From the IMG/VR virus record IMGVR_UViG_2671181094_000008, positions 1 through 40,078 of that record: 40,078 nucleotides of DNA; one strand, given 5' to 3'. Positions 7,376 to 32,937 of the stretch are shown in pieces; position 1 is the first letter of the stretch, and the number at the start of each line of letters is the position of its first letter. The position numbers and the translations under genes were made by a program. The notes beneath the pieces are model-generated. The model was not told the DNA's origin. It saw only the letters and a program-made list of their open reading frames with translations, and searched no databases. The DNA is from a virus (Duplodnaviria; Heunggongvirae; Uroviricota; Caudoviricetes).

Positions 7376-9229
7376 TTAGTAATTCATGGCGGTTGTTATT
7401 CTGCCATTATCCTCAACGTTATAGGTTTTCTTCTCCCCCTTATCATTGACCAGGGTGATTTCCAGCTTCATTTTCTGATCGGCCATCGCCTCTTTGAGAG
7501 ACCGGGTCAGGTTTTCACTGGCTGCCTCTCTCCCGTTGCCGGAGGCTGTCAGGATAGAAGAGCTGTCAAACGTATCAGGCTGAGGCGCGAGGATATTCTG
7601 TCTCTGCTGGCTGAGTACACTACTATCACGAAGACCTGACCAACGCGGGTCACTGATGGCCGTTTGAATTGCAGCCTGTATCTCATCTTCAGAATATGGC
7701 TGCGCGCCATTCTCATGCTGAATCATGGCTGCCATGACAGATTTCAGTACTTCCGGGTTATGCAGATCCATCCGCTGCTGGGGCTGAAATCCCGTCGCGG
7801 CTGAGACTGAATTGATATAGGACTGAGTGTCATTTTCTGACCGCGGCGCATAGGTGTGGATCATGCTGTTCAGCGTGTTATTCCCACGATCGCCATATAA
7901 CATCAGCTGCCTGGCCATTGCCGCCAACCCGTCGTTGCTATTGTCATAAGTGACGAAACCACGATTCACCCCGGTCGCATTAGGCGCTATCCGGAGATTG
8001 CCCGGGTTATTATTTCTGAGGCCCAGCGCCTGGTTAGATGGCTGGCTGTAATTCACCTCCCCGCGTGGAGCTGCTGCACCTGCTGGCAGGATAACAGACA
8101 AATCATTACGGAGTTGTTCAGCTCTGTCACTGGCGCCATATTGCGCGTCGTAGCGTTTCCGGACGGCATCCGTCATAAAGCCGGCATCTACCGCCCCGCG
8201 CTCACGCCGGGAAAGGGTGTTATACAGCGCTTTATCACCCTGAATGCGGCGTAGCTTCCCGGCATCCTTGCTACTGATAAACCCCAGCGCATGCGACAGC
8301 CCGGTGAAATCGCCATTCGTGAACAAGTCGGTCACACCTTCGAGACCGTCTTTCACCGAACCATCGGAAAGCAATCCCTTAAACAGAGAGTTTTTCGAAC
8401 GTTTTTTCAGCCCATCCCATGCTGCGCCCAGCTCATTCATGGTGCCGTTAACCTCGGACAATTGCCGGTTAAGTTCCAGATCAACCGTCAGGCCAAGTTC
8501 ATCAGATTTAGCCAGCAATGCTTTCATCCGTACGCCTTCACGCATCAGCGCCAGCATTTCCGGCGTCAATCCGAGGGCATCGGAAACCGACTTCTGCTGG
8601 TCAGGACGCAGGCTCGGGAAAACGCGCGCTATCGACTCCAGCGTTCTCAGCGTATCAACGGAGCCGTCATTGTTTTTCTGGATCTGAACGCCAATCTGCG
8701 ACAATGCGCCAAGCACCTGGCTGTTGGCACCGCTGGCGGCCTCCTTCAGGCTTTTAGCCATCCCCTCGATGGAAGCGTTGGCACTGTCACCATCAGCCCC
8801 CAGTATCCGCATGGCGCCGGACAGTCTGGAAAAATCCTCCACCCGCATACCCGCATTTTTCGCGGCAACATCGAGGTTATAGGCTTCCCTTGAGGCCTCA
8901 TGGAAACCGTAGGCAATCTGTTTTAACCCGTATCCCGCCGCCCCGACCACGCCCAGCGACGCCAGCTTACCGGAGAGCTCACCGACCATCTTCAGCGGCG
9001 GCACCATATCCCCGATATACTGCACGTTATCACGGGCATTTTTGGACAGATTTTCGAAGCGGGAGATAAAGCCGTTCAGGCCATCGAGGGTCTCCTGTCC
9101 TCCTAACTGGAGTCCCTCTTTGGTTTTATCCAGCTTTGGCTCCAGATCACGGATAGCCTCATTGATACGCTCAATGGCTTCCGTCGCCTGATCGCTGGCC
9201 ACCAGCTCAAAGTCGAAAGAATTACTCAT
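7376..9229 (-). CDS. Tail tape measure protein
   Basis: 617-aa protein placed between the chaperone pair and the DNA-circularisation gene. Confidence 0.65.
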   Translation of the reverse strand: MSNSFDFELVASDQATEAIERINEAIRDLEPKLDKTKEGLQLGGQETLDGLNGFISRFENLSKNARDNVQYIGDMVPPLKMVGELSGKLASLGVVGAAGYGLKQIAYGFHEASREAYNLDVAAKNAGMRVEDFSRLSGAMRILGADGDSANASIEGMAKSLKEAASGANSQVLGALSQIGVQIQKNNDGSVDTLRTLESIARVFPSLRPDQQKSVSDALGLTPEMLALMREGVRMKALLAKSDELGLTVDLELNRQLSEVNGTMNELGAAWDGLKKRSKNSLFKGLLSDGSVKDGLEGVTDLFTNGDFTGLSHALGFISSKDAGKLRRIQGDKALYNTLSRRERGAVDAGFMTDAVRKRYDAQYGASDRAEQLRNDLSVILPAGAAAPRGEVNYSQPSNQALGLRNNNPGNLRIAPNATGVNRGFVTYDNSNDGLAAMARQLMLYGDRGNNTLNSMIHTYAPRSENDTQSYINSVSAATGFQPQQRMDLHNPEVLKSVMAAMIQHENGAQPYSEDEIQAAIQTAISDPRWSGLRDSSVLSQQRQNILAPQPDTFDSSSILTASGNGREAASENLTRSLKEAMADQKMKLEITLVNDKGEKKTYNVEDNGRITTAMNY

Positions 9230-9413
9230 CGGGTTTGGTATTCCTGAGTTTATTGATACGGGTGGCCTGCGATACCCACCACTTCAGACGGGCATAGGTC
9301 ATGCCCCACGCCCTGTCTTCTGTCCAGCGGAAATAAAATGTGACGTCAGCGGCCGTTTCCTGCCAGGCGGTCAGGGCTTCCAGGTCAAAAAACCGAGCAA
9401 AAACTCCTCGCAT
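9222..9413 (-). CDS. Tail assembly chaperone, -1 frameshift extension (gpE'/GT-like)
   Basis: Overlaps the 3' end of the upstream chaperone ORF in the -1 frame; slippery heptamer TTTTTTG (minus strand, plus coordinates 9386..9392) lies in the overlap. Confidence 0.55.
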   Translation of the reverse strand: MRGVFARFFDLEALTAWQETAADVTFYFRWTEDRAWGMTYARLKWWVSQATRINKLRNTKPDE

Positions 9414-9649
9414 TTTCGGAAGTCGATAAAATCCATCGGCTGAAGCACACTTTCCCGCGTATCCGTGACCAGCGAGATCAGCAGACGCATTGCCGCCAGA
9501 GAAGTGGACGATGTCTGCTTTTCGTAGAACTGCTCTGCCTGGCTGAGCGTCGGTGCCTTCAGCTCCAGTTGCTCATAGCGCGTTTTTTGCGCCTCATCGA
9601 CAAGAGGCTTGATGAGAGGAATGACTTTGGTGCGTTCAAGTTCTGCCAT
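9371..9649 (-). CDS. Tail assembly chaperone (gpE/G-like)
   Basis: 92-aa ORF between tube and tape measure genes, containing the slippery site near its 3' end. Confidence 0.6.
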   Translation of the reverse strand: MAELERTKVIPLIKPLVDEAQKTRYEQLELKAPTLSQAEQFYEKQTSSTSLAAMRLLISLVTDTRESVLQPMDFIDFRKCEEFLLGFLTWKP

Positions 9650-17922: not shown

Positions 17923-20055
17923 TTATTGCGGCAGGAGTTTAGAAATGTTCTTACGCTTAACGGGAGCCATAGCCTCATCCACGATGGCACCCGGTAATTC
18001 GTAATTGATTTTTTCTTCTGGCTCGGCTGGCGCCGGCAGGAACTTATCGGGATCGGCCTGAAGGTTAGCGGCCCGAACATTGAGTTTTAGTCCCATATGT
18101 TTCAGTCCGCACAGCGCGGCATAGCTGTATACGAGACAGTCGAGCGCTTCGTTCGCCCGGCCGGGAATGGGCTCCCAGACACTGAATCGCTGTCCGGCCA
18201 CCACTTTGTAAACCAGTCGCTCTGCCAGTAGCTGGTTGAAATATCCGAGGTCACGATCATCCGGGAAGTGCATATAACCCACACCTGCAGTACCTAAAGC
18301 CGGCGGTTCAAGATGCAGACGACCACGGACAACATCTTTCGCAGAGTTCACGCCAAGAATAATTGGCCTGAAGCTGGCTTTACTTTTCGACGTCGGTCGC
18401 TTGGTTGGCCAGACGGGGTTACGTTTACCGCCCTGCGCAGACTCCCCCTTGATAGCCCAGATGCGTCGCCCAAGGCGCTCTTTACAGAACTCATAAACCT
18501 TTTGCGTGTGGTGACCACCGGAATCCATACATGCAGCCAGAATATTCAGCCCTCGCCCGTCACCGCGTCGCCATATCTGTTTCAAATACGCATCAAGGCG
18601 CTTCCACGGTTCCTCTGTTTCCAGGTCACCATAAATGACGTCATGCGCAACTGACCACGATTCCTCGTCCCGTCCCCAGCCAGTGATCGTGATTTCGAAT
18701 CGGTCATCCTGGGTATCGACGCCGGCAGTTAACAATGCCACGCCATCAGGAACGACGGCCGGGAAGACTTCACGGCGCGCCAGCAGGACATCAACCGGGA
18801 GCTGTTTCCCGTGGTTAGGTCGGTGCGGCAACCCCATCTGGGTGTTCCACCAGGCCTGTTCCTTATCCGGATCCCCTTTCGCATCGAGGTATTTCTTTGC
18901 AATGTCCGACGGCTTATCTTTCTGCCAGGGACTAAACAGCTTTGACGCCTGGTATCCGGCGTGGTGATTATCCAGCGCCTCAGCCCCACAGTCCGGGCAA
19001 ATCGCCCGGTATACGGCATGCCGTTCCGACTCCGACCATCGCCAGACAGTATCAATACTTCCCTCATCGCCTTCATGCCATTTCTGGTCGTATTCCATTA
19101 ATGGTGAATGGCGGGAACCACAACATTCAAACGGTTTGGTCTGATGCCAGCGGATTGTCTGTAATGCCCGCAGACGCTCACCCTCTGACCAGCCAGCACC
19201 ACAACATTCACAATGGATCATGGCCGATTTGGTCAGGTGCTTATCACCTTCTTTTGGCCATTGAACATGTTTGAAGAAATCAAGGAACTGTCGGTGCCCG
19301 CAATGGGGGCAAACTACAGAGGCCCGCCGCTGATCTGAATCTTCGTAACTGTCAGCAATCCGGCTTTCATCTTCAACCGTCGGCGAACAGGCCCGCACAG
19401 AAAGCCAGTTAAGGCCAAATGTTGCGGTTCGTTCTTCCGCCAGGGCAATGGGATCACCTTCACGTGTAATCGGGTATTTATCCACCTCATCCGCCAACAG
19501 AACACGGATAGGTCGGCGCGCAAGGTTATCTGGACTACCGGCGCCGGCCAGCGCCAGAAATCCGCCAGTGAAAGCTTTATACAGAATGGTTTCTTTTGAA
19601 CTCTTCTGCTTTGAGTCACCTATGATGTTACGCAGAACTGGCGTTACCCTAACCAGCGGGCTGATGCGTTCTTTGGAAAACTGCTCGGCGGCCTCTTCCT
19701 TCGGCTGCAGGAGCAAAATCGGACATGGGTCGAGGTGCGCGAAATAACCAAACAGGTTTTCCAGCAGCGCGGTTTTCATTAACTGGGTACAGCACATCAC
19801 GGTGATAATGTGGACGCCCGATTCCGTCGCGGCCAGCATAGGACCGCGGGCAATTTCAACCGTTGATGTTTCCCAGTTCCCGGAGGTGCTGCCAGCTTCT
19901 TTCGCCAGCTTCCGGTAGTCATCGGCCCATTGAGGGACGCTGATACGTGGTGGTGGTGTCCATCCCTTACGGACACTCAGTTGAAGGCGTTCAATCTTCT
20001 GCTGGGTTAAATTCTGGTTCTCCGAGGACTGAGATATGTTTGTGGACATGTTCAA
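17923..20055 (-). CDS. Terminase large subunit (lambda gpA family)
   Basis: 710 aa, follows the small subunit and precedes gpW and portal. Confidence 0.9.
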   Translation of the reverse strand: MNMSTNISQSSENQNLTQQKIERLQLSVRKGWTPPPRISVPQWADDYRKLAKEAGSTSGNWETSTVEIARGPMLAATESGVHIITVMCCTQLMKTALLENLFGYFAHLDPCPILLLQPKEEAAEQFSKERISPLVRVTPVLRNIIGDSKQKSSKETILYKAFTGGFLALAGAGSPDNLARRPIRVLLADEVDKYPITREGDPIALAEERTATFGLNWLSVRACSPTVEDESRIADSYEDSDQRRASVVCPHCGHRQFLDFFKHVQWPKEGDKHLTKSAMIHCECCGAGWSEGERLRALQTIRWHQTKPFECCGSRHSPLMEYDQKWHEGDEGSIDTVWRWSESERHAVYRAICPDCGAEALDNHHAGYQASKLFSPWQKDKPSDIAKKYLDAKGDPDKEQAWWNTQMGLPHRPNHGKQLPVDVLLARREVFPAVVPDGVALLTAGVDTQDDRFEITITGWGRDEESWSVAHDVIYGDLETEEPWKRLDAYLKQIWRRGDGRGLNILAACMDSGGHHTQKVYEFCKERLGRRIWAIKGESAQGGKRNPVWPTKRPTSKSKASFRPIILGVNSAKDVVRGRLHLEPPALGTAGVGYMHFPDDRDLGYFNQLLAERLVYKVVAGQRFSVWEPIPGRANEALDCLVYSYAALCGLKHMGLKLNVRAANLQADPDKFLPAPAEPEEKINYELPGAIVDEAMAPVKRKNISKLLPQ

Positions 20056-21512: not shown

Positions 21513-21980
21513 TTACTTCAGGCATTGCGTGGTGATGTATTCCTGCAGGGCTCTCAGGGCTGTTTGGTCGCTGAGGATTCCGGATCGGATACCGAGAACG
21601 TTTCGTCCAGCAACTGCAGAGAGTTCGACGGTGGCATCATCGCCCATGCTGGAGGCGCCGGTGGTTTGGGTTGAGGCTGACACTGGACATTTGCCTTTGA
21701 CGAGCACCCGACCACCATTATCAAGCTTGCGCTGCAGAGCATCATTTTCAGCTTTTGCATCGGCTAATTCCTTCGTGTATTTGGCATCGAGCGCTGCGAC
21801 GTCTCTCTGACGGGTCTGCATGTCAGCGATGGTGTCTTTCGCCAGGCTGAGCTGCTCAGTCACTTTATCGCGCTGCCTTTTGAACTCGGTGGCGTTGTCA
21901 TGGTAGTGGCTAGCCAACCATCCGAGACTGACTATCAGGCAGATCACAATGGCGCTGATAATGGTGGTTAATCGGCTCAT
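21513..21980 (-). CDS. Rz-like i-spanin
   Basis: N-terminal transmembrane segment then a periplasmic coiled coil; start MSRLTT chosen right after the endolysin stop; harbours an embedded ORF in another frame. Confidence 0.75.
21554..21760 (-). CDS. Rz1-like o-spanin, embedded within Rz
   Basis: Lipoprotein-like N-terminus with lipobox-like MVVGC followed by a proline-rich periplasmic region; entirely inside Rz in a different frame. Confidence 0.7.
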
Positions 21981-22480
21981 TTCTGCCCCCACAAACAAAC
22001 TTCACGCTCAATCTCGCGGCGAGTTACCAGGCCTTTCCACTGCTTGCCCTTGGCGTAAGTCCAGCGGCGCAGCTGGTCGCACGCACCTTTCTGGTCGCCC
22101 TGGTTGATTTTGCGCAGCAGCGTGGAGGTCTGGAAGTTTCCAGCGCCGACGTTATACGCGAATGAGTACAGAGCCCCGCGCATTGTTTCGGGGATCGGCT
22201 TCTGGATGTAAGGGTTAATCTGGCGGGCGACGGTGTTCAGGTCTTTACTGAGCAGCGCACGGCATTCAGCCTCGGTGTACTTCTTGCCGAGCATGATGTC
22301 TTTGCCAGTGTGGCCATAACAGACAGTCCATACGCCTACCACATCCTGATAGGGATCGTACCGCACACCTTCAAGACCATCATTACCAGTTGGCCCAGTG
22401 ATGAGCGCAGAAGCAATGGCTATGGCGCCACCGCCGACGGCAGCGATAACGCTATTCCTCAGTTTTGGTGTCATAGCCAT
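21977..22480 (-). CDS. SAR endolysin (lysozyme, phage 21 R-like)
   Basis: Gly/Ala-rich weakly hydrophobic N-terminus [18 protein letters not shown] followed by a lysozyme-like E...D...T segment ([16 protein letters not shown]); strongly resembles phage 21 R as I recall it. Confidence 0.8.
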
Positions 22481-22721
22481 TGAGCCGATCCTCGCGTTCT
22501 TTCCGCCGGTAGTACCAGTTCACCCCACAGGTGGTAATGGTGCAGGCGATACCGACAATAATTGCCCAGTCACTCAGGGTCATCCCCGCTATTTTGTCGG
22601 CCAAAATCCATACCTCTGCCTTAACTGCCCCGGCATACGCCTTTGCTGAGACACCGCAGCCCGTCAGTGCGGTCCCGGTGCCGTATGAAAGTCTGCTGTA
22701 AATGGTGCTCATTTTTGTCAT
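22452..22721 (-). CDS. Holin with dual-start motif (pinholin-like topology)
   Basis: Begins MTKM (two Met codons separated by a Lys); a weakly hydrophobic first TMD and strongly hydrophobic second TMD; directly upstream of the SAR endolysin. Confidence 0.65.
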
Positions 22722-22929
22722 AACCTCACCTCCGTTGATGACGGATGGCGCTGTGCGTAAAGGGGAAAAGAGGCCCAGACCCTGCGGGCTGATTTATCAA
22801 CAAAGCACGTCGGGGATGATTCCCGAGGGTCTGGGCATGCTCAATAAAAAAATCCCGCTCAAGGCGGGAAGAAATACCAAGGGTAAAAGCGACGGCGCGG
22901 TAGCCGTAATGGTCCCAAGGTAGAGGGAT

Positions 22930-23004
22930 TGGAGCATCTGGCGGGGATCGAACCCGCATTTTCTGGTTGGAAGCCAGATGTAATTACCAAACTACGACAG
23001 ATGC
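22930..23004 (-). tRNA. Phage-encoded tRNA, anticodon UCC by manual folding (tRNA-Gly-like)
   Basis: 75-nt cloverleaf: acceptor GCATCTG/CAGATGC, D-loop with GG, anticodon stem TCTGG/CCAGA, loop CTTCCAA, T-arm GCGGG-TTCGATC-CCCGC, discriminator T and encoded CCA. Confidence 0.7.
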
Positions 23005-23194
23005 AATCTGGTTCAGGGCTCTGCGCGGAAGGGTTTTGACGTGTCGTGCAGCACGTCTCTACCCAAGAGCCCTGACCGGATCGCAGGCATAAAAAAGCCC
23101 CGGCGGATTGCCGAGGCTAATTTTACAAACTGGTATATGACTATCATCTTCATGCCGCCACTTAAAGTTAAGGCAGCATATCAAAGTAGACTCA

Positions 23195-23223
23195 AATATG
23201 ACGTATTTAATTGACTTTTGCAA
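23195..23223 (-). promoter_or_regulatory. Candidate late promoter (pR'-like) at the 3' end of the Q gene
   Basis: On the minus strand TTGCAA, 17-nt spacer, CATATT; overlaps the Q stop region and points toward the tRNA and lysis genes. Confidence 0.3.
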
Positions 23224-23896
23224 GACCCTGCTGCGAAAAAGTCGCTTTTTGTTGTGATCGTGTTCTCACAGCACAGAGAAGAGAGTCGCTATCAAGCCGC
23301 TTAAAAATGGCGCACATAGCCCGCCAGTAATCAGCGTAGTTATGGCACCAGTTATCAGGCTTAACGCCACACAGGGCTGCAAGGTCCTGGTGCTGATATA
23401 CATACTTACCCGCCAGCTCTGCTTTCACGTCCTGTGCCGCCAGCCATATCAGTTTCTTCAGCCGCTCCATCGTCTTGCCGGCCACTTTCTTAGCGCCGAG
23501 TTGATCACGGAATTCTTCCCATGCCCACTGTGTTATCGCTACCTGATACTCAAAGCGGATATTGTCGCTGTAGTTCCACAGCAACCAGGATTTCTGGTGG
23601 TCTTCCAGCGACAGGAGGGCGCGGCGCCAGCTGGCTGTCGAGTATTCAACGGGCAGAACGAGAGCGATTGAGGAACCCTTAGCGCGGCACTGGCTGCCGC
23701 TCATCGGCGGTCCATCCGGGTTAACCATTTTTTGCTTCACCTCGCTATACACCTTCTTCCGGCCACGGCTGCGCGCCGTAGCGGTAAATTGCGCGTTCTC
23801 TGCAAAAGCTACCAGTTGCCCTTTCGTCGCACCACTCAGATCGGCGGTGGCCACTATCAGCTGCTGGCGAACAAATTCCAAGTATTGAGCTGTCAT
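23207..23896 (-). CDS. Antitermination protein Q-like
   Basis: 229 aa, located between the nin-like region and the tRNA/lysis cassette as in lambdoid phages. Confidence 0.65.
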   Translation of the reverse strand: MTAQYLEFVRQQLIVATADLSGATKGQLVAFAENAQFTATARSRGRKKVYSEVKQKMVNPDGPPMSGSQCRAKGSSIALVLPVEYSTASWRRALLSLEDHQKSWLLWNYSDNIRFEYQVAITQWAWEEFRDQLGAKKVAGKTMERLKKLIWLAAQDVKAELAGKYVYQHQDLAALCGVKPDNWCHNYADYWRAMCAIFKRLDSDSLLCAVRTRSQQKATFSQQGLAKVN

Positions 23897-24029: not shown

Positions 24030-24392
24030 TCATGCGGACTCCATTTCGGTAATGGTTAGCTCAAGCCGCCCACCTTTGACGACAGGCATTCTCTTCACGC
24101 TGTAGTAGTCAACCTGCTGGTCATCGAGCCAGAAACCCGATTTCGTCAGGGCGTCGAATGCTGCCTTTTGCAGATTGTCCAGGTCACGGCGCCGGCGATC
24201 CGGCATGTGACACTCAATACGGATTTTCAATGGCGTGGCCAGGCCGATATCAAGCATCGAGTCTTTGATGATTCTGGCGACGCTGTCGCGGTATGCCTGC
24301 CCTTCCGCGCTGATGTGTGTGCGTCCCCGGTTGTGCCGGTAGTAGCGGTTGTTGCTTGGCGGCCAGGGTAATGAAATGCGATATTGGTTCAT
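24030..24392 (-). CDS. rusA: Holliday junction resolvase RusA
   Basis: Near-identical to E. coli RusA as I recall it ([21 protein letters not shown]..., ...[29 protein letters not shown]...); start [12 protein letters not shown] overlaps the upstream stop. Confidence 0.9.
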
Positions 24393-24679
24393 GCTTTTAT
24401 CAACCCCTCTTTCATCCAGATAACCTGCGTTCTGGCCATTCCCTCCAGCGCGCACTCCTTCGCATACTCCGCATCTACCAGGCGCGTGCGGCGGTCTATT
24501 TCATCGTGACAGGATGAACAGGCGATAGCGGCGAGCAGATCAGGCGGCTTAATCCCCGTCCCGCACAATCCAGCAATGCGGATATGGGCCAATACCGTGG
24601 TTTCAGGGTTGCCGTTGCAGACGCCCGGGATGCGAACCTGGCATTCACGACCGCGAGCTGCTTTACGAAGATTGGCCAT
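24389..24679 (-). CDS. DUF1364-like putative zinc-binding phage protein
   Basis: Start [32 protein letters not shown]; cysteine-containing motifs. Confidence 0.45.
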
Positions 24680-30259: not shown

Positions 30260-30288
30260 ATAATAGCAATGCGTATTGGTTTTAGCAA
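30260..30288 (-). promoter_or_regulatory. PR-like early promoter with embedded operator
   Basis: Minus strand TTGCTA, 17-nt spacer, TATTAT; operator palindrome CAATGCGTATTG (30267..30278) in the spacer. Confidence 0.55.
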
Positions 30289-30302
30289 TAGCAAAACGTG
30301 TT

Positions 30303-30330
30303 TTGACCAGTAATACGCAAGCGTATAAAT
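30303..30330 (+). promoter_or_regulatory. PRM-like promoter for cI with overlapping operator
   Basis: TTGACC, 15-16-nt spacer, TATAAA(T); near-palindrome ATACGCAAGCGTAT (30313..30326) in the spacer; transcript would be almost leaderless. Confidence 0.45.
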
Positions 30331-30338
30331 TTGAGATT

Positions 30339-31037
30339 ATGAAAAAAGAAACTCTTGCAGATCGTTTAAACGAGGCCATGGCTTCGGCTGGAATGTCACA
30401 AGGGGCGCTTGCGAAGGCCTCAGGTATTGCTCAGCCAACCATTTGGCGCCTGGTGAGTGGAAACGCCAGGGGTTCAACAAAAATTGTCGAGATAGCTAAT
30501 GCTTTGGGCGTCAGGTCTGAATGGTTATCAACCGGAAATGGACCGATGCGCGATGACGGCCAGCTCCCTCGCGCTGCCCAGGTTAAAAGCCAGGATACTG
30601 ATGCATTCAGGATTGATGTGCTGGACCTTATGGTTAGTGCCGGGCCGGGCATCGTGAACCAGGAGTTCGTCGAGATTCTCCGTTCTGTTGAGTATGAGCC
30701 AGCTGAAGCCCGGCACATGTTCGATGGGCGTAAGGCTGAGAACATCCGGATCATCAACGTCCGGGGCGACAGCATGTCTGGGACGATTGAGCCGGGTGAT
30801 CTGCTGTTCGTCGACATCAGCGTTAAGAGCTTCGACGGCGACGGGATATACGCCTTCCTGTACGACGACACTGCTCACGTCAAGCGCCTGCAGAAGATGA
30901 AGGATAAGCTGCTGGTTATCTCAGATAACAAGAGCTATGCCCCTTGGGAACCGATCGAGAAAGATGAGATGAATCGGGTGTTCGTGTTCGGCAAGGTGAT
31001 CGGCAGCATGCCGCAGACGTACAGGAAGCATGGGTAA
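30339..31037 (+). CDS. CI-like repressor (HTH plus S24 LexA-like autopeptidase domain)
   Basis: N-terminal HTH, C-terminal GDSMSG (Ser nucleophile) and VKRL (Lys); divergent from cro. Start MKKETLADRL chosen over the upstream ATG to leave room for the operators. Confidence 0.85.
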   Translation: MKKETLADRLNEAMASAGMSQGALAKASGIAQPTIWRLVSGNARGSTKIVEIANALGVRSEWLSTGNGPMRDDGQLPRAAQVKSQDTDAFRIDVLDLMVSAGPGIVNQEFVEILRSVEYEPAEARHMFDGRKAENIRIINVRGDSMSGTIEPGDLLFVDISVKSFDGDGIYAFLYDDTAHVKRLQKMKDKLLVISDNKSYAPWEPIEKDEMNRVFVFGKVIGSMPQTYRKHG

Positions 31038-31304: not shown

Positions 31305-32069
31305 GTGATCAGAATAGGAAGGTTACTACCTGGCGGCATTGCAATTGACGAAGGGCAACATCACCCGATAAAGGGCGTTGCTCTTTTGATAAAAGAAAAT
31401 AGCGAACCAGAAGAGATTGTTGTTTTTGCAAAAGAAATATCTTCTAGGAGCATTTCTATAGAAATAACCTGCGCAGCCTTGGGAAGAGCTCTATCCCTGC
31501 CTATACCCGAGCCAGTACTACTGTTTGACAGCTCAAACAAAGCATTTTTTGGTAGTGTTGATGCTACCTATCCGAGTTTCATGAAGTATGTTTCTAACTC
31601 TTCAGATCAGGCCGTTTCTGATGCTTTGGCATCATGGCCGTTATTGAAAAAAGCTAGCTATTTTGATGAGTGGATTGCGATGGATGACCGTCACAACGGA
31701 AATTTGCTTTTCAATGGTGATGGTTTCTTCCTGATAGACCATGAATCGGCAATTCCCCAAGGTCTTGCCCCTGACCTTTTCGGGATAGATTATTACTCCA
31801 ATCAATTGCTGCAGGTAGCAACTTACATACTCGATAGAAGTAATGATATAGCCGTTCAGATGATGGCAAATGAGGCGAGAGCTTGGACCATGTCTTGCAA
31901 GAGTAACACCCTAACGCTATTAGATGGAGAGATATCCGAAACAGTTCAAGGTAAAGAGAAAAATCAAATAATGTCTTTCCTTTCATCTAGAATTGAGTTA
32001 CTAGGAGACATTCTTTATGATCAAATCAAGCCCCAACAAACACAGATGATATACGATGCTAAATCTTGA
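31305..32069 (+). CDS. HipA / PI3-4-kinase-like fold protein
   Basis: GTG start with AGAGG 8 nt upstream; catalytic-loop-like DRHNGNLLF and downstream FFLIDHES; AT-rich; co-oriented downstream of cI. Confidence 0.5.
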   Translation: MIRIGRLLPGGIAIDEGQHHPIKGVALLIKENSEPEEIVVFAKEISSRSISIEITCAALGRALSLPIPEPVLLFDSSNKAFFGSVDATYPSFMKYVSNSSDQAVSDALASWPLLKKASYFDEWIAMDDRHNGNLLFNGDGFFLIDHESAIPQGLAPDLFGIDYYSNQLLQVATYILDRSNDIAVQMMANEARAWTMSCKSNTLTLLDGEISETVQGKEKNQIMSFLSSRIELLGDILYDQIKPQQTQMIYDAKS

Positions 32070-32937
32070 TCAGCTTCTTAAGTCAGCTCCTGCTATGCCT
32101 GCAACATCAGGGCGCTGGGCATCTGTTTATCTTGAACCAATGATCGGCTCAGGAGAGCGGCTCACGGTAGCAGTTGCCACGATAACATCATCTGGTGAAA
32201 TTTTAGTTAAGCCGGCAATCAGAAAAGAAGTTATAGAAGCTATGTATGGCTTCAAAGCACCAGCATTTATCAATGTGGTTGATCTGATTTTGTCGAGTTT
32301 GAAGTTGCATCTGGCTGCTAAGGGGGATTTCGTATCATGGCATCCTCCAGTTACAGGCGTCACTATAAGCGCCGTAAGGAATGCTGCGTCATCAAGCCCT
32401 GTTGGCATACTCCGCCAAGCGGTATCATTGTCATCGAGTTTGTCATCACTCCTTGAGGCTGAAGAAGATTCCGATGGGTTGCCAGCTAAGCAATCAAGAA
32501 CTAAAGACAGGTGGCCAATTCAAATCTTTGATGCGGTTATCAGCGCTGACGGACGCAGGGATATTTTTTTCAATAGAAGCTTCACCTTTAGTGATGGACA
32601 CAGACCGGCTAAAATTTTCTATCTAAGCGATCATGCAGCTATCAACACCGGAAAACTGTTACCCCACAACTTGAATGAGCAGGTTAAGGATGGAAAAGCA
32701 AAAATATCTGACTTATCAATGATAAAAAGGCAAGGCGATATTTTTCCAAGAGAAACTCATCAAATGATTATCTACAAACCGGAAGATGATAGCCCTGCAT
32801 ACAATGATAGGCACATAGCATCAATAAATAGTGCGTACCTTTCTTTACAGGACTTGGCTAACACCTACGATGTATCAATCACTTCTGTAAGCACTGCCGA
32901 GCATGCAGCAAGGTTAATATTGCAAACTGCAGCATAA
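32056..32937 (+). CDS. Hypothetical protein, translationally coupled partner of the kinase-like gene
   Basis: 293 aa; start overlaps the upstream gene by 14 nt; no motif I recognise; AT-rich. Confidence 0.5.
   Translation: MLNLDQLLKSAPAMPATSGRWASVYLEPMIGSGERLTVAVATITSSGEILVKPAIRKEVIEAMYGFKAPAFINVVDLILSSLKLHLAAKGDFVSWHPPVTGVTISAVRNAASSSPVGILRQAVSLSSSLSSLLEAEEDSDGLPAKQSRTKDRWPIQIFDAVISADGRRDIFFNRSFTFSDGHRPAKIFYLSDHAAINTGKLLPHNLNEQVKDGKAKISDLSMIKRQGDIFPRETHQMIIYKPEDDSPAYNDRHIASINSAYLSLQDLANTYDVSITSVSTAEHAARLILQTAA

Follow-up and report, generated by a model that had tools for sequence, protein, structure and literature searches.

A tRNA-Gly(UCC) gene as an exchangeable cassette in the late-operon leader of a lambda-like, Klebsiella-type prophage

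Introduction

Transcription of late genes through antitermination by Q is established regulation in lambdoid phages, and it serves here as the analogy by which we read a tRNA-Gly gene with anticodon UCC found in the virus record IMGVR_UViG_2671181094_000008, positions 1 to 40,078 of which (40,078 nucleotides, referred to below as the window) were analyzed as a whole. The window represents a mosaic prophage of lambdoid type, most closely related to Klebsiella phages. Among the closest described systems are the Shiga toxin (Stx) phages, in which tRNA genes lie upstream of stx2AB and past Q, the promoter pR' and a terminator, all on the same strand, as in the window, while the isoacceptors differ. 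The genes concerned go by the names ileZ, argN and argO, on which a literature search gave nothing. The tRNAs of these phages appear to have a promoter to themselves, located between tR' and stx2AB (PMC7547250). The lambdoid phage HK446 carries an Asn(GUU) and a Thr(UGU) tRNA in the same slot as the window gene, between Q/pR' and the holin gene, past a terminator and on the same strand, again with isoacceptors that differ from that of the window. Outside this slot, phage T5 encodes a tRNA-Gly(UCC) of a separate lineage, which keeps G3:C70 and G4:C69, has a different anticodon stem and lies in large arrays and not as a single late-leader gene; T4-like Klebsiella phages, also with large arrays, match positions 21-75 of the window tRNA at 80%. 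The T5 and window genes have in common that both are phage-encoded isoacceptors diverged from that of the host.

The feature itself matters little, since it is of a classical prophage tRNA type which has already been annotated. What is added here is its strand, the exact boundaries of the cassette, its spread over unrelated phage types and its departures from host glyT at 3:70, 4:69 and in the anticodon stem, together with the weak specificity of the codon argument and a testable link to tRNA-targeting defence.

Results and Discussion

The tRNA-Gly gene

ARAGORN called a single tRNA in the whole 40-kb window, a tRNA-Gly with anticodon tcc:

22930..23004, minus strand: tRNA-Gly (UCC), 75 nt including CCA (ARAGORN, Rfam, fold, family covariation and identical annotation in E. 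coli RefSeq genomes)

An original prediction, made from the sequence alone, had described a complete 75-nt cloverleaf with an encoded CCA, had folded the anticodon UCC by hand, and had proposed a tRNA predictor as a check. ARAGORN accepted the fold with the same boundaries, 22930-23004, and assigned the same anticodon, and the CCA was read directly from the minus strand; the strand is an addition here, the earlier prediction having named none. The Rfam tRNA family RF00005 matched at 22933-23004(-) over model positions 1-71 of 71 with 60.6 bits (E 7.5e-11; gathering score 29 bits), and beyond this gene the Rfam scan of the window returned no other family at threshold. The cloverleaf was both the minimum-energy and the centroid fold of the 75-nt RNA, at -26.4 kcal/mol (z = -3.8), with one of 200 shuffles equally stable.

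Read 5' to 3' on the minus strand, the tRNA begins GCAUCUG-UC-GUAG-UUUGGUAA-UUAC-A-UCUGG-CUUCCAA-CCAGA and continues AAAU-GCGGG-UUCGAUC-CCCGC-CAGAUGC-U-CCA, which gives stems of 7, 4, 5 and 5 pairs, a variable loop of 4 nt and the T loop UUCGAUC. The conserved bases U8, G18, G19 and U33 were read from the sequence, the T loop follows the UUCRANY pattern, the anticodon is U34 C35 C36, the discriminator is U73 and the CCA is gene-encoded. The marks of an RF00005 elongator tRNA were therefore found together, namely a full-model score over threshold, a cloverleaf with its tertiary bases and compensatory changes in the stems, the last of which are described below. Judged by its sequence, this is a real tRNA-Gly(UCC) gene, and probably a working one, of a lambda-like, Klebsiella-type prophage.

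Known copies and spread of the lineage

The gene is not new; prophage late-leader tRNAs have been annotated before. In 9 complete E. coli genomes the same 75 nt are present without change and are annotated by RefSeq as tRNA-Gly, and in the one such context that was fetched, that of E. coli ST540 (CF61_RS07620), the gene lies between an antiterminator Q gene and an HP1-family holin gene. Copies 94-99% identical are found in Klebsiella and Enterobacter temperate phages, one of them, at 97%, being annotated as tRNA-Gly between Q and holin in Klebsiella phage vB_Kpn_RAH1, and the same arrangement is annotated in ECONIH4; most other phage records which contain the sequence leave it unannotated. That the tRNA is phage-encoded, as first proposed, is thus borne out by a phage-borne gene with copies in related phages. 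A pattern for the 5' half of the tRNA-Gly matched 83 IMG/VR contigs and, because the element is accessory, only one of the species-representative genomes, that of Citrobacter sp. OP27.

The Gly lineage stands beside at least three antiterminator genes: the PF06323 Q of the window, a short protein of the 'antiterminator Q family' in ST540, and DUF1133 in ECONIH4 and ST147-VIM1phi7.2. It is common to lambdoid prophages of Klebsiella, Enterobacter, Citrobacter and E. coli and to lytic N4-like Klebsiella phages. In the latter (Schitoviridae), copies 88-91% identical and with compensatory changes lie at the end of tRNA arrays, adjoining tRNA-Pro(UGG), in VLCpiP4b (L010:441-515), BaqKoxi (L011:1501-1575) and VLCpiP4a (L012:1501-1575). 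These N4-like copies score 59-62 bits with Rfam, are absent from the GenBank annotation and are missed by ARAGORN solely because of a U at position 9, a change of which to C restores the call. In VLCpiP4a the permuted-tmRNA model of Rfam also gave a match that starts inside the tRNA-Gly (L012:1518-1739, 47.8 bits against a gathering score of 47); we take this to be a borderline match, probably false and caused by the tRNA-like part.

An exchangeable tRNA cassette

By megablast, the homology of several relatives to the window begins exactly at 23004 or stops exactly at 22930, the two ends of the tRNA, so that tRNA genes act as module boundaries in this leader. Alignment of the leaders revealed a constant frame which consists of a terminator, a leader ending ...CCAGATT, the cassette, a conserved downstream block with terminators, and holin. 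Within this frame the homologous slot of related phages holds varying tRNA genes: Gly alone in the window, Asn-Phe-Thr-Arg in Mulock and ST101-KPC2phi6.1, Thr-Arg in Kp4882-1, Met-Arg-Gly in KpnBHU6, Asn-Gly-Thr in Enterobacter phage BHUENT6 and Asn-Thr in HK446. Among the IMG/VR contexts, Gly stood alone in 38 of 80, and the rest had Asn(GUU), Thr(UGU), Arg(UCU), Met(CAU) or Phe(GAA) with it. The tRNA-Gly gene is a small exchangeable cassette in the late-operon leader, and the statement of the original prediction that lambdoid phages commonly carry tRNA genes at this position holds for the related lambdoid phages.

The tRNAs of HK446 are related to those of the Klebsiella cassettes, its Asn and Thr being 91% and 92% identical to those of Mulock, and in some IMG/VR arrays the Mulock-type Asn and Thr are joined to a window-type Gly. 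We also considered whether the HK446 Thr might belong to the Thr lineage which flanks Gly in Enterobacter phages; at 71% identity this was rejected in favor of the 92% match to the Thr of Mulock and ST101.

In HK639 a chimeric pseudo-tRNA was found between Q and the lysis genes (L004:2501-2575), of which positions 1-31 are of the phage-type tRNA-Gly and the part from the anticodon loop to the CCA is identical to K-12 glyT. Pairing is impossible in both its acceptor and its anticodon stem, and no tRNA was called there by ARAGORN or by Rfam. Its appearance suggests a scar left by recombination, at the CTTCCAA loop common to both, of a phage tRNA-Gly gene with one of host (or host-derived) origin. 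The leader of HK639 also contains, between the tRNAs and the lysis genes, a match to the Rfam small RNA family STnc100 (L004:2838-3043, 52.6 bits against a gathering score of 47); no STnc100 match was returned for the window.

A prophage of E. coli strain 127 carries Thr(UGU) and Gly(UCC) side by side (L007:2915-3068) in the slot discussed here, between a DUF1133 antiterminator-like gene and essD. Its Thr(UGU) is 100% identical to host thrU and its Gly(UCC) 96% identical to glyT, and a Gly copy of this type is present in 36 of 5426 E. coli genomes (the context having been fetched for strain 127). From these identities the pair looks like a recent capture from the host thrU-tyrU-glyT-thrT operon, unlike the diverged lineage of the window.

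Selection on the cloverleaf

The freedom with which the slot is refilled could mean that the tRNA, functional or decaying, merely persists as a cost-free passenger at a recombination-prone mosaic junction, with no selected benefit. This would fit the homology breaks at the exact ends of the tRNA, the freely varying content of the cassette, the many close relatives that lack the Gly tRNA, and the broken phage/glyT chimera in the same slot of HK639, which shows that tRNA genes do undergo recombination and that a loss can be tolerated. The family alignment argues otherwise. In an alignment of 25 distinct full-length variants taken from other phages, pairs were formed in 99.4% of stem cells, compared with 39-47% in slid controls, and compensatory double changes were observed at four pairs in 13 cells (31:39, 48:64, 50:62 and 51:61 in sequential numbering), one pair in the anticodon stem and three in the T stem; none of 500 shuffles reached the observed pairing or covariation score. 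Variation was concentrated at unpaired positions, namely 19 in the D loop, 26, 38 and 45 in the variable loop. The cloverleaf fold is under selection.

With respect to the identity elements for charging, U73, C35, C36 and the anticodon loop were invariant in the family, G1:C72 was present in 25 of 25 variants, C2:G71 in 23 of 25 and A3:U70 in 24 of 25, and this conservation, as read from the aligned variants, is the pattern expected of a tRNA selected for charging. The invariance of these elements speaks against a passenger, as do the stem pairing with its compensatory changes and the retention of the lineage across unrelated phage types, both lytic N4-like phages and lambdoid phages whose antiterminator genes are of at least three kinds. 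A neutral passenger is therefore an unlikely account of the gene.

Divergence from host glyT and probable charging by glycyl-tRNA synthetase

E. coli K-12 glyT (tRNA-Gly2, UCC) was used as host reference, standing in for the enterobacterial (Klebsiella) glyT. The window tRNA is 69% identical to it overall. The two share the anticodon loop CUUCCAA, the T stem, the 4-nt length of the variable loop, U73, G1:C72, C2:G71 and the encoded CCA, and the first three pairs of the D stem are identical, the fourth (13:22) being G:U in the window and U:U in glyT. In contrast, acceptor pairs 3-7 all differ (GCAUCUG in the window, GCGGGCA in glyT), anticodon-stem pairs 29:41 and 31:39 are flipped in the window tRNA relative to glyT, and there are further differences at position 26, in the D loop, in the variable loop and at one T-loop base. 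At 29:41 the tRNA-Gly(UCC) of T5 is also unlike the host; the bases differ from those of the window, and convergence of the two in the anticodon stem was set aside as uninformative.

For E. coli glycyl-tRNA synthetase (GlyRS), mutation of the first acceptor pair costs 11-43-fold, of the second pair 5-10-fold and of the third pair 1-4-fold, and mutation of C35 and C36 costs 105-1500-fold and 21-41-fold, respectively; the U73 discriminator is important as well, and G3:C70 and G4:C69 are contacted by the enzyme and highly conserved in bacterial tRNA-Gly (PMC9908026). The window tRNA retains the strongest of these elements (U73, G1:C72, C2:G71, C35 and C36), and A3:U70 and U4:A69 replace G3:C70 and G4:C69. 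This replacement counts against a working glycine tRNA, and it could be taken to mean that the molecule is not a glycine tRNA in practice, being a pseudogene or else mischarged or left uncharged through its departures at 3:70 and 4:69. A relative in KpnBHU6 (L015:1501-1575, from an UNVERIFIED record) lends this some color, as it combines G3:U70, the identity pair of alanyl-tRNA synthetase, with a glycine anticodon; it may be a mischarging variant or a sequencing error, and no IMG/VR copy has G3:U70. We consider this explanation very improbable. The third pair costs GlyRS only 1-4-fold, so that A3:U70 and U4:A69 weaken the description 'typical bacterial tRNA-Gly' and not charging by GlyRS, and A3:U70 belongs to the family at large, in which the stronger identity elements are fixed or nearly so as given above. 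That a phage Gly(UCC) can be functional in vivo is indicated by the T5 tRNA-Gly(UCC), the record of which notes an effective suppressor after a change of anticodon; since the T5 copy keeps G3:C70 and G4:C69, it is uninformative on tolerance of the acceptor-stem departures of the window. Going by the identity elements, charging of the window tRNA by GlyRS is likely, perhaps with a modest penalty.

Architecture of the late leader

The tRNA-Gly gene lies between the antiterminator and the first lysis gene, on the same strand as both and past a terminator. The features of the region, in the order in which they would be transcribed, are:

24030-24455, minus strand: RusA, upstream of Q
23207..23896, minus strand: late-gene antiterminator Q (Pfam PF06323 Phage_antiter_Q, E 3.7e-79, 217/220 profile positions)
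23119..23206, minus strand: intergenic stretch of 88 nt after Q, presumed pR' and Q-loading site, judged from its conservation alongside this Q gene
23090..23118, minus strand: intrinsic terminator preceding the tRNA (equivalent of tR'), with 7 G:C pairs in its 9-bp stem and a U run after it
23005..23089, minus strand: conserved 85-nt leader ahead of the tRNA cassette, an imperfect long hairpin GGTCAGGGCTCT...AGAGCCCTGAACC, ending ...ACCAGATT
22846..22869, minus strand: terminator-like hairpin directly after the tRNA, TCCCGCCTTGAGCGGGA then TTTTTTTATT (hairpin 22869-22853 plus T7)
22762..22834, minus strand: second, long-range hairpin after the tRNA, GCCCAGACCCT...AGGGTCTGGGC then CTCTTTTCCCC, read from the sequence
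22452..22721, minus strand: holin, first late gene (Pfam PF16080 Phage_holin_2_3, E 1.4e-13; HP1-family holin or holin in relatives)
21977..22480, minus strand: endolysin (Pfam PF00959 Phage_lysozyme, E 1.3e-46)
21513..21998, minus strand: Rz-type spanin (Pfam PF03245 Phage_lysis, E 6.8e-29)
17923-20055, minus strand: large terminase, downstream of Rz and followed by a myovirus-type tail module

The location between Q and the lysis genes given in the original prediction was thus correct, with Q upstream of the tRNA, holin, lysozyme and Rz downstream, and all of them on the minus strand. The Q of the window is annotated as an antiterminator in relatives. It had no relative at E <= 1 among the sequences of solved structures in PDB, and because solved structures presumably exist for the Q proteins of lambda and phage 21, the window Q is by sequence probably of neither the lambda nor the phage 21 type. 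The first ~70 nt past the Q stop are conserved wherever this Q gene occurs, even where the terminator is a different one (ST899-OXA48phi17.1). The stem of the upstream terminator spans 23118-23096, AGCCTCGGC/GCCGGGGCT, then TTTTTTAT, and a terminator is annotated at the equivalent position in Mulock and HK639.

The leader at 23005-23089 was nearly unchanged in 27 loci (21 distinct sequences), where it precedes varied tRNA cassettes and follows varied Q genes; regardless of either, its place is always after the upstream terminator and ahead of the cassette's first tRNA. The 3' end of its hairpin (...GAACCAGATT) is similar to the CCA-plus-spacer junctions between tRNAs in arrays. A known RNA or a degenerate tRNA was considered for this leader and rejected, as comparison with Rfam at E <= 10 gave noise only, neither ARAGORN nor Rfam reported a second tRNA, and the 21 distinct sequences had no compensatory variation and included a few variants that break pairs. 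Downstream of the tRNA, the hairpin at 22846..22869 is conserved in relatives with or without the Gly tRNA, and that at 22762..22834, just ahead of the holin ribosome-binding site, is conserved in the leader alignment and has a terminator-like inner part (22789-22773). Two open reading frames of 73 and 77 codons, 22702-22923 (+) and 22726-22959 (-), cover the non-coding leader and overlap the tRNA; similar short 'hypothetical proteins' are annotated there in several GenBank relatives (e.g., ORF31 of RAH1), and all of these are probably spurious calls.

The position of the gene also bears on whether it might be an attachment site or att remnant, or a spare copy compensating for a host tRNA gene disrupted by the prophage. 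Prophages often insert in tRNA genes and carry a duplicated 3' part, and the idea has been raised for HK446 in a preprint on the OLD nuclease (bioRxiv 10.64898/2026.07.10.737580). The gene is, however, complete, and its place is amid the late regulatory region, ~16 kb away from the window's integrase end; the tail module occurs beside three host neighbourhoods (citrate synthase/fimbrial; smpB, recN, grpE; acrAB), none of which is glyT; and lytic N4-like phages carry the same tRNA. On the position of the tRNA and the variety of host flanks we reject a role in attachment or compensation, which we regard as barely credible.

Proposed late expression and supply of a glycine isoacceptor

The order of promoter region, terminator, tRNA, further terminators and lysis genes makes the tRNA most simply part of the Q-antiterminated transcript, and the explanation we favor, at about even confidence, is that a working tRNA-Gly(UCC) made from this transcript tops up the host glyT pool for GGA and GGG. 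Transcription would start from a late promoter just past Q and would normally be halted at the terminator 23118-23090. Once Q is made after induction, Q-modified RNA polymerase would pass the terminator, the tRNA and the two terminator-like hairpins and would continue through the genes for holin, endolysin, Rz, terminase and morphogenesis. The tRNA, its CCA already encoded, would be freed from the long transcript by host RNase P, acting at the 5' end, and by host 3' trimming enzymes; host GlyRS would charge it through U73, G1:C72, C2:G71, C35 and C36; and it would then read GGA and GGG, adding to the pool of an isoacceptor for which the host has a single gene (glyT) while late translation proceeds at a high rate. 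We infer each of these steps, namely Q-dependent co-transcription, processing, charging and the benefit to decoding.

Several observations weigh against this account. Consensus scanning and hand inspection of the conserved block next to Q yielded no convincing -10 for pR'; the sole consensus promoter-like match, ATGATA-16-TAAAAT at 23147-23120, is poorly conserved, and its start would fall inside the terminator stem. The separate promoter that appears to drive the tRNAs of Stx phages (PMC7547250) makes strict Q dependence uncertain for the window tRNA; a consensus scan gave no match for a promoter of its own.

Codon usage also tells partly against it. The original prediction had suggested that the tRNA supplements a codon rare in the host and had proposed to compare GGA and GGG between late and host genes. 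In 24 late genes (6460 codons) GGA occurred at 11.8 per 1000, compared with 6.6 per 1000 in a small sample of 13 host genes from prophage flanks (3930 codons), a ratio of 1.76 (p 0.01) which ranks 13 of 61, and GGA was the rarest Gly codon of the host-flank sample. GGG, at 16.4 and 12.2 per 1000, had a ratio of 1.34 that was not significant. The late genes contain 182 of the two codons together, most densely in the genes for baseplate and tail. The part of the suggestion which stands is therefore that GGA is rare in the host sample and enriched in the late genes; no significant excess was found for GGG, and the enrichment of GGA is below that of GCA, TCA, ACA, CGA and CCA (1.9-3.6-fold), so that its excess appears mainly to reflect the lower G+C of the phage and not a special demand. 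The four most enriched late-gene codons were AGG, AGA, ACA and ATA, which the Arg(UCU), Thr(UGU) and possibly the CAU tRNA found in the slot of relatives would read; the window phage is without tRNAs for these most over-used codons, and the codons read by two other tRNAs of the slot, Asn(GUU) and Phe(GAA), show no enrichment in late genes. A codon supplement is compatible with these data and weakly supported by them.

A link to programmed frameshifting was considered and rejected. The slip site of lambda G/GT is G_GGA_AAG, read by tRNA-Gly(UCC). In the window, GGGAAAG at 9456-9450(-) lies out of register in the tail-assembly-chaperone gene (Phage_TAC_7, 9371-9649, minus strand), and the in-register slippery site of that gene is T_TTT_TTG at 9392-9386, in which Gly is not involved. 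A -1 shift at the latter site joins the chaperone gene to an overlapping open reading frame ending at 9222, the usual chaperone frameshift of long-tailed phages.

Possible escape from tRNA-targeting defence

The same molecule, expressed by the same route, might instead benefit the phage through immune escape, of which T5 tRNA-Lys against PARIS is an example. Its sequence would allow a phage Gly(UCC) that tRNA-targeting defences do not recognize when they hit glyT, and which would keep GGA and GGG decoded while the host glyT product is cleaved or chemically blocked. We consider this possible and rate it below the supply of decoding capacity; the two are not mutually exclusive. P2 OLD has been reported in a preprint (July 2026, bioRxiv 10.64898/2026.07.10.737580) to be a tRNase which cuts after nucleotides 27-29, and Gly(UCC) is among the five tRNAs that it depletes. 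According to the same preprint, the Thr(UGU) of T4, of T5-like phages and of lambdoid HK446 resist OLD and rescue OLD-sensitive phages, and the tRNAs of T5 cover all five OLD targets, with Gly(UCC) as one of them. The Asn and Thr of HK446 occupy the slot that holds Gly in the window and, as given above, are close to those of the Klebsiella cassettes. PARIS AriB targets Lys(UUU), Thr(UGU) and Asn(GUU) (PMC12409363), and from the two target lists it follows that the slot's Asn, Thr and Gly, three of its six isoacceptors, are all known tRNase targets.

The window tRNA also differs from glyT in regions on which such enzymes act, at position 26, 29:41, 31:39 and acceptor pairs 3-7, with the strongest GlyRS elements kept, which may suit escape. 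The toxSAS enzyme FaRel2 selects tRNA-Gly and tRNA-Thr through G1-C72, C2-G71, G4-C69 and Pu5-Py68 (PMC11559606); of these determinants the first two, needed by GlyRS, are retained in the window tRNA, which has U4-A69 and C5-G68 in place of the others. Escape would also suit the presence of the lineage, beside Pro(UGG), in the tRNA arrays of lytic N4-like Klebsiella phages. On the other side, the differences from glyT fit general divergence equally well, and phage tRNAs of any role typically diverge from their host counterparts. The evidence on OLD comes from a preprint, the authors of which suggest that the single tRNA of HK446 may be an adaptation to temperate life and not directed against OLD, and in which one tRNA failed to rescue lambda (bioRxiv 10.64898/2026.07.10.737580). 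FaRel2 is from a Firmicute, and the Arg(UCU) and Phe(GAA) of the slot are not known targets of OLD or PARIS.

A broader form of this idea, which we put forward tentatively and consider rather doubtful, is that the diverged Gly(UCC) lineage might be a defence-escape isoacceptor in which the GlyRS-critical elements have been kept and the anticodon- and acceptor-stem positions read by OLD-family TOPRIM tRNases, toxSAS and GNAT toxins have been changed; the Q-to-lysis slot of lambdoid phages would then be a general counter-defence tRNA locus and not a codon aid. The locus offers a test case for whether temperate phages carry single tRNAs to meet codon demand or as substitutes for host tRNAs that defence systems destroy. 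It comprises a single gene at a defined position, natural variants exist without the gene or with other tRNAs, and its isoacceptor, recently reported as a P2 OLD target, differs from glyT in the anticodon and acceptor stems.

Other features of the window

An acyltransferase gene (Acyl_transf_3) at 365-1423 on the minus strand lies in an island of 38% G+C (the rest of the window being 46-56%) between baseplate and tail-fibre genes. The assembly collection indexes this exact protein in 277 blocks, and the gene with its adjoining tail module is found in bacterial chromosomes of ~5.3 Mb in at least three host neighbourhoods. It is likely a lysogenic-conversion gene that modifies surface polysaccharide. 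At 31305-32937 on the plus strand, directly past the cI-like repressor gene (30276-31037), two genes in a stretch of 46-47% G+C occupy the position of lambda rexAB. The second of them (293 aa) had no match found, and the first had weak matches, both below threshold, to a HipA_2 kinase (Pfam, 25.5 bits against a cut-off of 27) and to the PADLOC candidate PDC-M66A; together they may form a prophage-borne defence or toxin module.

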